Source of the DNA: a virus
Taxonomy: Duplodnaviria; Heunggongvirae; Uroviricota; Caudoviricetes
Direction: 5' to 3' (one strand)
Virus record (IMG/VR): IMGVR_UViG_2547132279_000012
Coordinates: 1 to 41,632 of that record
DNA length: 41,632 bases
This document shows positions 37,045 through 38,660 of this stretch, piece by piece (the stretch's first letter is position 1; each line of letters begins with the position of its first letter). The position numbers and the translations under genes were made by a program. The notes below the pieces were generated by a model that was not told the origin of the DNA, did not search any database, and worked only from the letters and a program-made list of their open reading frames with translations.

Positions 37045-37599
37045 ATGCTTATTGGCTATGTACGCGTATCAACAAATGACCAGAACACCGATCTACAACG
37101 TAATGCGTTGAACTGTGCAGGATGTGAGCTGATGTTTGAAGACAAGATAAGCGGTACAAAGTCCGACAGACCAGGACTGAAAAAGCTGCTCAGGACACTA
37201 TCGGCAGGTGACACGCTGGTGGTCTGGAAACTGGACCGACTGGGGCGCAGTATGCGGCATCTTGTCGTGCTGGTGGAGGAGTTGCGCGAACGAGGCATCA
37301 ACTTTCGTAGTCTGACGGATTCAATTGATACCAGTACCCCAATGGGGCGCTTTTTCTTTCATGTGATGGGTGCCCTGGCTGAAATGGAGCGTGAACTGAT
37401 TGTTGAACGAACAAAAGCTGGACTGGAAGCTGCTCGCGCACAGGGACGAATTGGTGGACGTCGTCCCAAACTTACACCAGAACAATGGGAGCAGGCCGGA
37501 CGATTAATTGCATCAGGCGTTCCTCGCCAGAAGGTGGCGATCATCTATGATGTTGGTATATCGACACTGTATAAGAAGTTTCCGGTCGGAGATAAATGA
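37045..37599 (+). CDS. Serine DNA invertase (Pin/Gin/Hin/Cin family)
   Basis: MLIGYVRVSTNDQNTDLQRNAL... resolvase/invertase N-terminus with catalytic Ser and C-terminal HTH; near-identical by recall to e14 Pin. Confidence 0.9.
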   Translation: MLIGYVRVSTNDQNTDLQRNALNCAGCELMFEDKISGTKSDRPGLKKLLRTLSAGDTLVVWKLDRLGRSMRHLVVLVEELRERGINFRSLTDSIDTSTPMGRFFFHVMGALAEMERELIVERTKAGLEAARAQGRIGGRRPKLTPEQWEQAGRLIASGVPRQKVAIIYDVGISTLYKKFPVGDK

Positions 37600-37637
37600 A
37601 ACCGTAGCACGTCGTATGCAAGAAGATCGTGCTGCGG
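37581..37637. repeat. Left copy of an imperfect direct repeat (about 35-45 bp, hairpin-containing) bracketing the GIY-YIG gene
   Basis: GAAACCGTAGCACGTCGTATGCAAGAAGATCGTGCTGCGG matches GAAACCCGTAGCCACGTCGTATGCAAGAACGTGCTACGA at 38611-38660. Confidence 0.5.
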
Positions 37638-37659
37638 TTTATGCTTATCACTTAAAGAC

Positions 37660-38433
37660 TCAAAAATTAGGTGAGTAACGGACCGGGGACATAGCTCCTT
37701 TTTTTCTTAATTCATCTGGTATTTTTTTTCCAAGATAAAGATTTGCTATTTCAGGTGGGGCTTCTCGACCTTCAAAACCATAGCGAGAACTTTGTGTTGC
37801 CTCAAAGTCCGGATCCTCGTCCCAGTATTTCATCGTAGGGAAATTTTCACGTGTTGATTTGAGCCATTTATCAGCAATGAAAACCCCTCGAACGATCCCC
37901 CTTACAGTAGCAAGAATGACTTCTGCTTGGCTGGCGCGAGAGACATTAATGCGCCAGCTAAATCGAACCGCATCATAAAGCTCTGAATCCTTTGCACTTC
38001 TGTTAACGGAAATCATTAATGCTTTATGATGAAATGTTATGGTTTCGGGTTGATATGTTGCTATCAACTCTTTGACATGCGCGGCGCCGAATTCATTGCT
38101 GCCAGCACCATTCATGATATTCGTTAACCCAGGGTAGGCATCAATAAGTGCTGCTTCAACTTCGTACGCCGTCTTTTCATCAGTCATTCCGTGTCGATGG
38201 ATGACATGGATAACCTCAAGTCCTGCTAACCTTATTTCTCTAATTTGCTTTAGCTTGTTGCTCAGTAACTCGTCATCATCAGTCGCTGCCACTTCACCGC
38301 GCATATGGGCAAATACGCGGTTACCTTTGCCTTTCCCTACATAGAAGGTGCTTCCGTCCCTCGGATCAATCAATCGGTATACATACCAGCCAAGGTGTTC
38401 AATTACTCCAGAAGGAAACTCAGTAATATCCAT
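37660..38433 (-). CDS. GIY-YIG nuclease-domain protein (N-terminal GIY-YIG, uncharacterised C-terminal domain)
   Basis: [29 protein letters not shown] plus downstream Glu (EVEAALID) fits the GIY-YIG pattern (compare UvrC GVYRM...YVGKAK.LR.R); AT-rich. Confidence 0.7.
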
Positions 38434-38610
38434 TTTGCAATATCTATGAATTATTTGTGAGACGTATATTAATGAACATTGCAAGGGCTCACAACCAGTA
38501 GTGTTGAGAAAACCATCGGGGAAATGAGGCTAAGCCTTTGAATTTACATAGTATAAAAAAGATACTTTTCCTCATAATGTGAATTAATTTTATGTTTCGT
38601 TTGATGATTG

Positions 38611-38660
38611 GACCGGTCTCGAAACCCGTAGCCACGTCGTATGCAAGAACGTGCTACGAC
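38611..38660. repeat. Right copy of the direct repeat bracketing the GIY-YIG gene
   Basis: See the left copy; lies in the promoter-side intergenic region of the minus-strand gene. Confidence 0.5.

Follow-up and report, generated by a model that had tools for sequence, protein, structure and literature searches.

Near the right end of a 41,632-nt stretch of Caudoviricetes DNA (IMG/VR record IMGVR_UViG_2547132279_000012, positions 1 to 41,632; hereafter the window) a minus-strand gene at 37660–38433 is flanked by two direct copies of a ~40-bp hairpin, which we name H; the conserved non-coding DNA that usually lies downstream of H is named E. The gene is PD-T4-3, renamed CMoRE, and it is a moron: prophages that are otherwise collinear differ in whether they carry it between genes that are conserved. 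We consider it likely that this type IV restriction gene resides as a moron in a thrW prophage, that H is a terminator-like hairpin common among prophages, and that recombination between two types of thrW prophage left H in tandem around the gene. An original prediction made from the window sequence had viewed the gene and its repeats as a cassette acquired by site-specific or homing-type insertion; overall, the observation behind it is real but ordinary. The window carries a prophage integrated at the tRNA-Thr gene thrW (1369–1444), with a repeat of the thrW 3' end (30 nt) located ~330 bp past the window end, and this prophage resembles e14 and Sp1. The RefSeq annotation used here is that of E. 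coli 21EVA, whose genome contains a stretch identical to the window.

A modification-dependent nuclease gene

The PADLOC profile for PD-T4-3 (PDLC04031) matches the protein encoded at 37660–38433 over its full length (residues 1–256 versus profile positions 1–255 of 256, E = 2.4e-140), and the gene coordinates agree with RefSeq. A sequence search of the PDB aligned residues 1–257 without gaps to 9U75_A, with 253 of 257 residues identical and four conservative substitutions (E = 3.7e-172); 9U7U was matched with E = 1.1e-150. The window protein equals PD-T4-3/CMoRE of E. coli O157:H7 in length and in the order of its domains, again with 253 of 257 residues identical and four conservative substitutions. 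Its N-terminal part contains a LEM-3-like GIY-YIG domain (Pfam PF22945, residues 28–110, E = 2e-14), as had been recognized from the sequence alone. The C-terminal half, which had been called uncharacterized, is the modification sensor of CMoRE according to the PDB match, and the earlier suggestion of a single-gene defence nuclease of E. coli prophages has proved right.

The PD-T4-3 gene itself is already known, having been screened, tested in a native host and crystallized; it reportedly figures in the screen of Vassallo et al. in 2022. The native-host study confirmed its activity against Tevenvirinae. PDB 9U75 and 9U7U represent the proteins of E. coli O157:H7 and avian pathogenic E. coli (APEC) O1, further entries for this system are 9U8D and 9U7Z, and Liu et al. 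(Nat Commun 2026, PMC12923530) renamed PD-T4-3 CMoRE. CMoRE is a stand-alone, tetrameric type IV restriction endonuclease that depends on 5-hydroxymethylcytosine (5hmC) or its glucosylated form (5ghmC): modified DNA is bound by the C-terminal domain and degraded by the N-terminal GIY-YIG domain, and an acidic loop autoinhibits the enzyme on ordinary DNA (PMC12923530). T2, T4 and T6 plate about five orders of magnitude less well on cells that express the O157:H7 enzyme from its native promoter, and the protection is non-abortive (PMC12923530). Degradation of 5hmC/5ghmC DNA and restriction of T-even phages have been shown for the O157:H7, APEC O1, Klebsiella, ECOR68 and NILS69 alleles. With 98% identity to the characterized protein, the window allele would be expected to restrict T-even phages and degrade hmC DNA as well. 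Genomic context is not treated in PMC12923530, the terms prophage, hotspot and mobile being absent from its text.

PD-T4-3 is present in 838 of 5,426 complete E. coli genomes and belongs to a wider family of more than 6,000 members in many phyla. Homologues from Salmonella, Enterobacter and Citrobacter (83–85% identity) occupy other islands, have the open reading frame alone in common with the E. coli loci and are not accompanied by H. We compared 79 IMG/VR loci that encode a 99–100% identical protein. The upstream region at 38434–38609 (minus strand), which contains the native promoter, is kept with the gene in 74 of these loci, which are all those in which the anchor sequence could be located. 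By eye the best promoter candidate is TTGTGA-17-TAATAT, and a consensus promoter scan of 37400–39000 gave no strong match on the relevant strand.

The hairpin H and its place in prophages

A repeat search of the window found an exact 17-nt direct repeat, CACGTCGTATGCAAGAA, at 37608–37624 and 38633–38649. Gapped local alignment extends this repeat to 37598–37636 (left H) and 38621–38658 (right H), with 35 of 41 columns identical and a score of 51, compared with 19.7 ± 2.7 (maximum 29) for shuffled flanks (n = 300), so that the repeat is not due to chance. The hairpin repeats first reported to bracket the gene are therefore real. Their core string was given correctly, while their outer limits were drawn too wide: positions 37581–37597 are the end of pinE and 38611–38620 belong to a relic of the tRNA gene serU, both outside the repeat. 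The pinE gene (37045–37599, plus strand; Pfam Resolvase E = 3.5e-51 plus HTH_7; pinE in RefSeq) encodes the serine DNA invertase of the tail-fibre inversion switch and is the conserved left neighbour of the PD-T4-3 module. Left H lies between the convergent pinE and PD-T4-3 genes and overlaps the invertase stop codon (TGA, 37597–37599), again as first noted.

Left H folds into a 13–15-bp hairpin (−22.5 kcal/mol, z = −5.25). Right H, the first part of an H-E block, folds less distinctively (z = −2.6 on the plus strand and −3.1 on the minus strand), partly via a shifted alternative pairing. The compensatory-looking stem changes described between the two copies are real at one pair, 12–42, for which the consensus is C-G (34 of 40 variants) and which is U·G in the left and U-A in the right copy. 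Among 40 distinct H variants, drawn from a sample that is biased by the search pattern, 85.6% of stem cells are paired as opposed to 26–49% when the partners are slid, and double-sided changes occur at four stem pairs. This covariation lends modest support to a hairpin that may be under selection.

H is not peculiar to PD-T4-3. A 271-nt query comprising right H and E was found in 5,387 of the 5,426 E. coli genomes, at a median of three places per genome, and a second query behaved similarly (5,385 genomes). In K-12, the Rac and Qin prophages have H ~200 bp inward of their ends. HK97 has, in this order, tfa, a pin 3'-end remnant (...GGGAGATAAATGA), H, 85 bp of E, the annotated sib, the attP core and int, which places E1, the first part of E, between H and sib/attP. 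In a lambda-like remnant at attB-lambda, H-E adjoins lambda's own sib region. From these positions we conclude that the native place of H is immediately after pin or tfa, on the inner border of the att/int module. Outside Escherichia and Shigella H appears to be absent: in 185,579 species-representative genomes an exact 18-mer covering the loop and right arm of H has no matches elsewhere but about a dozen that are consistent with chance.

Across 226 H sites in 198 IMG/VR loci, ~25–30 different upstream contexts meet H at the base of its stem, often ending in a pin or tfa stop codon 0–20 nt before the stem, and only ~5 contexts follow it downstream (E, the PD-T4-3 3' flank and three others). 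Where one locus has multiple H copies, they are always in direct orientation and bracket unrelated cargo. The spacings from H to H are ~1.0 kb (PD-T4-3), 1.8 kb (XRE and ImmA), 2.7 kb (XRE, ImmA and BRO) and 4.2 kb (PD-T4-3 with a Dcm-type methyltransferase and a restriction endonuclease), as well as 1.6 kb and 5.4 kb; further cargo includes a gene for a 334-aa protein and an ompT-containing segment.

What H does may be read from its surroundings. It separates convergent units both in the window (pinE and PD-T4-3) and in HK97 (the late/tail operon and the int-side transcripts). In most contexts the H stem is preceded by an A-run and followed by a T-rich stretch, and transcription of either strand therefore gives a hairpin with U-rich RNA behind it. 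For left H the RNA is U-rich after the stem on both strands, with a moderate U-tract, and on the strand of the gene a stable hairpin is followed by UUUCAUUUAU. We suggest that H is a transcription terminator, probably a bidirectional one, which insulates convergent late (tail fibre, pin) and int-side units from each other, in which case left H would end both the pinE and the PD-T4-3 transcripts. Under a terminator reading, H would mark a place where morons are expected to be tolerated. Rho-independent terminators have a GC-rich stem, a loop of 3–8 nt and a U-tract directly after the stem. H has a stem of this kind. Three observations weigh against a simple terminator: the H loop (11–14 nt) is longer than that of textbook intrinsic terminators and is conserved at least as well as the stem, right H is without a U-tract on the plus strand, and a consensus terminator scan of 37400–39000 called 0 sites, left H included.

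Two known elements were considered as identities for H and rejected. H is not the sib/tI retroregulator of lambda, as sib is a separate sequence to the right of H-E in lambda and HK97 and H has no match in lambda. Nor could H-E be assigned to a known RNA family, the only Rfam match being a sub-threshold one to the 3' hairpin of CssrB (RF02799), a chromosomal small RNA of Shigella. Both H copies align with this 3'-terminal hairpin of the model, scoring 24.5 and 19.2 bits versus a gathering score of 76 and covering only the last ~45 of 180 model positions. Full CssrB was not found in the tested Shigella, E. coli and K-12 loci that carry H, and a literature search on H-E as a known RNA family returned unrelated uses of the term only.

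Block E, which normally follows H, spans 38658–38812 (E1 to ~38725, E2 to ~38812) and matches no Rfam family. The Prokaryotic Genome Annotation Pipeline (PGAP) labels 38645–38725 an incomplete 'capsid protein' pseudogene. The open reading frames in block E are short and overlap on both strands, and the label is probably a mis-annotation.

Junctions of the module and origin of the tandem hairpins

An in-silico deletion product consisting of the pinE end, one H and E1 is matched with at least 80% coverage in 580 genomes. The best match, in strain QDFD216, is 99.4% identical; its thrW prophage is of the same kind and collinear with the window to the left and to the right, and pinE is directly followed by a single H, of the same variant as the right copy of the window. 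What separates the window from empty sites is a clean indel of 1,025 bp, with H as its boundary. The original prediction had proposed to look in related prophages for an empty site with one repeat copy, and this is what these genomes contain. Its notion of gene acquisition holds in so far as PD-T4-3 is a present/absent module, a moron in a prophage hotspot, and is not supported in so far as it takes the module for a self-inserting cassette with its own repeats.

The hairpin coincides with the module junctions, and the two sides of the gene behave differently. On the 3' side a complete H is present in all 72 of the 79 sampled loci in which the anchor could be located. This H is preceded by a pinE stop, a lambdoid tfa stop or other sequence, and homology to the window breaks at 37597–37599. 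On the 5' side the flank is common to all 74 anchor-located loci up to ...TTTGATGAT(T/C)GG(A/G)(C/T)CGGTCTC(G/A)AAA(A/C)CCG, after which three classes diverge. In class R1, the window type (180 genomes), the flank runs into the rest of H and then E. In class R2, about one quarter of the sampled loci, right H is halved, with only the left arm and part of the loop present (...GTATGC running directly into GTTAATTT); beyond this half-hairpin follow a Dcm/type II module, a pin remnant and a complete H-E. In class R3, the commonest with 430 of the 838 carrier genomes, there is no right hairpin at all. Here the flank continues as GAGTAGGGGCAACTCTACCGGGGGTTCAAATCCCCCTCTCTCCGCCA, the 3' part of the tRNA-Ser(CGA) gene serU, and then as 278 bp of DNA that lies downstream of serU in K-12 (96–97% identity). 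Class R3 takes in the Sp1/CP-933H-type thrW element of O157:H7.

Since the R3 flank runs on into the complete 3' part of serU, we read positions 38610–38628 of the window (plus strand; GGACCGGTCTCGAAACCCG, 18 of 19 positions identical to serU positions 25–43) as the relic of a serU attachment junction, comprising the anticodon arm and attachment-site core of this tRNA-Ser(CGA). The relic overlaps the base of the right hairpin, right H starting inside it. The possibility that right H is the intact attP of a serU-integrating phage was rejected: the reciprocal junction (serU 5' part, core, H) is absent from the 5,426 genomes, and the best matches to it start no earlier than the core, each of them linked to PD-T4-3.

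Two side observations concern these classes. A Dcm-type cytosine methyltransferase and a type II restriction enzyme adjoin PD-T4-3 in about one quarter of the sampled loci (L005, 4239–6099; L098, ~10100–13100); this module is inserted into the loop of the right hairpin and pairs a modification-dependent with a modification-blocked system. The serU junction with 278 bp of host DNA stands at the right end of thrW prophages in the 430 genomes of class R3 (L090, 693–1036), and in O157:H7 PA20 (L212) the junction lies between an AraC-family regulator gene and PD-T4-3. The occurrence of serU DNA at the right end of a thrW prophage points to an old transfer of a prophage end with host DNA or to a rearrangement between serU and thrW prophages.

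The simplest history that we infer for the window involves two parents. One would be a prophage with the order pinE, H, PD-T4-3 and serU attachment junction (R3 type; 430 genomes), and the other an 'empty' prophage with the order pinE, H and E (580 genomes). On the left side they would have been joined by a homologous crossover in pinE or the tail genes. On the right side the joint would fall at GAAA(A)CCG, which is common to the serU anticodon-arm relic and the base of H, and could have arisen either by microhomology-mediated illegitimate recombination or by integrase action at a secondary site. The outcome would be two orthologous hairpins from two parental phages placed in tandem around the gene, not an insertion duplication, and R2 would derive from R1 by a further replacement ending within the loop. 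PD-T4-3 itself we regard as a gene added, together with its promoter, to the variable right arm of the thrW prophage, where it fills the slot immediately after pinE. Weighing against this history is the finding that at least three H sequence variants are fused to the same serU core, which would call either for gene conversion at a later stage or for joining that recurred at the same spot; the second of these would speak for a more specific mechanism. In addition, insertion by unequal recombination and loss of the gene between H copies in an occupied ancestor give the same sequence picture.

A more specific mechanism is conceivable. H could be a structured site-specific recombination site (attC-like or a secondary att site), with PD-T4-3 plus one H forming a mobile cassette that is moved by a recombinase acting in trans, such as a prophage integrase, the neighbouring short tyrosine recombinase or Pin. 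The clean H-bounded indel at empty sites fits this proposal, as do direct arrays of H, cargo, H, cargo and H, the large number of upstream contexts at the stem base compared with few downstream ones, the two kinds of junction inside the loop (that of R2, and one in which the left arm and loop move with the upstream context), the conserved loop sequence and a tyrosine recombinase gene only 1.3 kb away. The sequence GAAAACCG, common to the serU anticodon arm and the H base, would suit an integrase acting at a secondary site. Integron cassettes with their attC sites resemble H loci in having short imperfect palindromes at their boundaries and direct arrays of unrelated cargo. Against the proposal, the junctions are irregular, some falling where the left arm begins at its base, others inside the loop or upstream of the A-run, and the orientation of cargo relative to H varies. 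As read from the sequence, H has no attC-type core sites (RYYYAAC/GTTRRRY); no integron integrase is present, and the nearby tyrosine recombinase scores far under the Xer and integron-integrase cut-offs. Unlike attC, H is confined to Escherichia/Shigella prophages, as its exact 18-mer indicates, and homologues of PD-T4-3 in other genera move without it. The reciprocal serU-5'/H product expected if R1 were an attP is missing. We therefore regard a mobile cassette as unlikely.

The cassette defined by its repeats, as first predicted, is not supported. H occurs in ~99% of E. coli genomes at about three places each and bounds many unrelated cargos, most carriers of PD-T4-3 are without an intact right repeat, and in the window the right copy is preceded by a serU core relic that is not duplicated on the left. 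The prediction had named two circumstances that would speak against it, namely a common element unrelated to the boundaries of the gene and carriers without flanking repeats, and both are largely what we observe. Insertion with target-site or att duplication does not fit either, the right repeat being absent in R3 and truncated in R2 and the junction positions varying.

A related thought is that H is a structure- or site-specific recombination hot spot, for example as a secondary att site for a tRNA integrase or as a hairpin causing breakage or template switching. It would then capture and exchange defence genes and other moron cassettes time and again where pin/tfa borders on att in E. coli temperate phages, as a counterpart, carried by phages, of an integron platform. 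Such a hot spot is suggested by the many upstream contexts that meet the stem base together with the loop-internal junctions, and we consider it improbable. If H were an active recombination site this would explain the shuffling of cargo; the present evidence favours ordinary modular recombination.

Gene loss could in principle account for the empty sites without any gain. In such a scheme the arrangement H-gene-H would be ancestral in the prophage family and empty sites would be deletions by homologous recombination between the 17–26-nt identical cores of H. Direct repeats this long support RecA-dependent or slippage deletions, and the H of the empty sites could be the product of recombination between the left flank and the right copy. 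This is contrasted by the distribution of single H: the arrangement pin or tfa, H and E is far wider and more diverse (HK97, Rac, Qin and more than 5,380 genomes) than the gene (838 genomes), and right H has a serU relic that empty sites are without. Both facts indicate that the occupied state is derived, at least originally, and we consider loss alone distinctly unlikely.

Finally, that the gene is a free-standing GIY-YIG homing endonuclease, spreading by cutting an empty allele and copying itself in, is hardly credible and for practical purposes excluded: the GIY-YIG domain, the sharply bounded presence/absence polymorphism and a weak PHROG match to a homing-endonuclease family (E = 0.002) are set against 98% identity to a tetrameric restriction endonuclease with a modification-sensing C-terminal domain, whose dependence on hmC/ghmC was shown experimentally, the lack of homing DNA-binding modules (NUMOD, IENR1, HTH) in a Pfam search of the protein, and a location in non-coding prophage DNA by an att relic instead of in or beside a conserved target gene.

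Known systems and the surrounding right arm

A parallel to the PD-T4-3 moron is found in K-12. McrA is an HNH enzyme, a protein unrelated to PD-T4-3. Like PD-T4-3, McrA of e14 (NC_000913, 1209685–1211179) is a single-gene type IV enzyme whose gene immediately follows pinE, in a prophage of this family and at its right end; it differs in its reading direction, which is opposite, and in having no H on either side. The slot after pinE in e14/Sp1-type prophages thus holds different type IV enzymes depending on the strain (McrA in K-12, CMoRE here) and seems to act as a hotspot for their genes. More broadly, morons of lambdoid phages, reportedly described for HK97 and HK022 by Juhala et al. in 2000, and the defence hotspots of P2/P4 prophages, said to have been described by Rousset et al. 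in 2022, resemble the PD-T4-3 locus, where an autonomous gene has its native promoter, is flanked by a hairpin that looks like a terminator, stands between conserved phage modules, is present or absent in collinear prophages and serves in defence. The PD-T4-3 locus is unlike them in that a single recognizable ~40-bp hairpin is reused at many junctions and that one boundary keeps the relic of a tRNA attachment core. As H marks the edge of a variable region in prophages of essentially all E. coli, it could serve as a landmark for finding cargo and defence genes.

The right arm of the prophage is ordered as Mu-like baseplate and tail-fibre genes, the invertible segment, pinE, PD-T4-3, a Mrr_cat-type nuclease, a short tyrosine recombinase and a zinc-finger/restriction endonuclease-like protein. 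Shortly before pinE, TTCTCCCAAACCAACGTTTATGAAAA at ~36965–36990 was recognized by eye as a pix/hix-type site for invertase crossover; it borders the invertible tail-fibre segment. H was likewise considered as a crossover site for Pin; it has only AAACC/GGTTT in common with this pix-like site, and in H these half-sites are separated by ~30 bp.

The Mrr_cat-type nuclease module (38790–39966; gene 38907–39818, plus strand) is 91% identical to 'ORF1' in the Z-region of phage P2-EC67 (AJ512685, 92–1259), which is annotated as a lysogenic-conversion gene and has inverted repeats of 113 nt and 91 nt on its flanks. This match indicates that the same cargo occupies hotspots of two unrelated phage types; the nuclease has no PADLOC match. 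The left edge of the module is marked by the motif TGTRCCAGAAGYGGAMGTT at 38798–38816, which also ends the 'left inverted repeat' of P2-EC67 (AJ512685, 100–118). An unrelated island of Enterobacteriaceae has a degenerate form of this motif upstream of its PD-T4-3 homologue (L233, ~3880–3900). The motif may be a second boundary or a promoter-proximal element.

Directly after the point where homology to the P2-EC67 module stops lies the tyrosine recombinase gene (39971–40627, plus strand; RefSeq start 40025), whose short product of 200–218 aa consists of the catalytic domain only. The last protein (40751–41632, plus strand), which runs off the window end, has weak similarity to REase_MTES_1575, DnaJ-type CXXCXGXG zinc-finger repeats and a partial match to PADLOC PDC-M01B (E = 6e-15), and may be a further defence gene within the same 4-kb arm. 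Beyond the window end, past the thrW 3' repeat that forms attR, a second integrase starts a P4-like satellite (L001, 11561–12970) with genes for AlpA-type helix-turn-helix, AntA/AntB, Ash and Icd-like proteins, which indicates that two elements are integrated in tandem at thrW.

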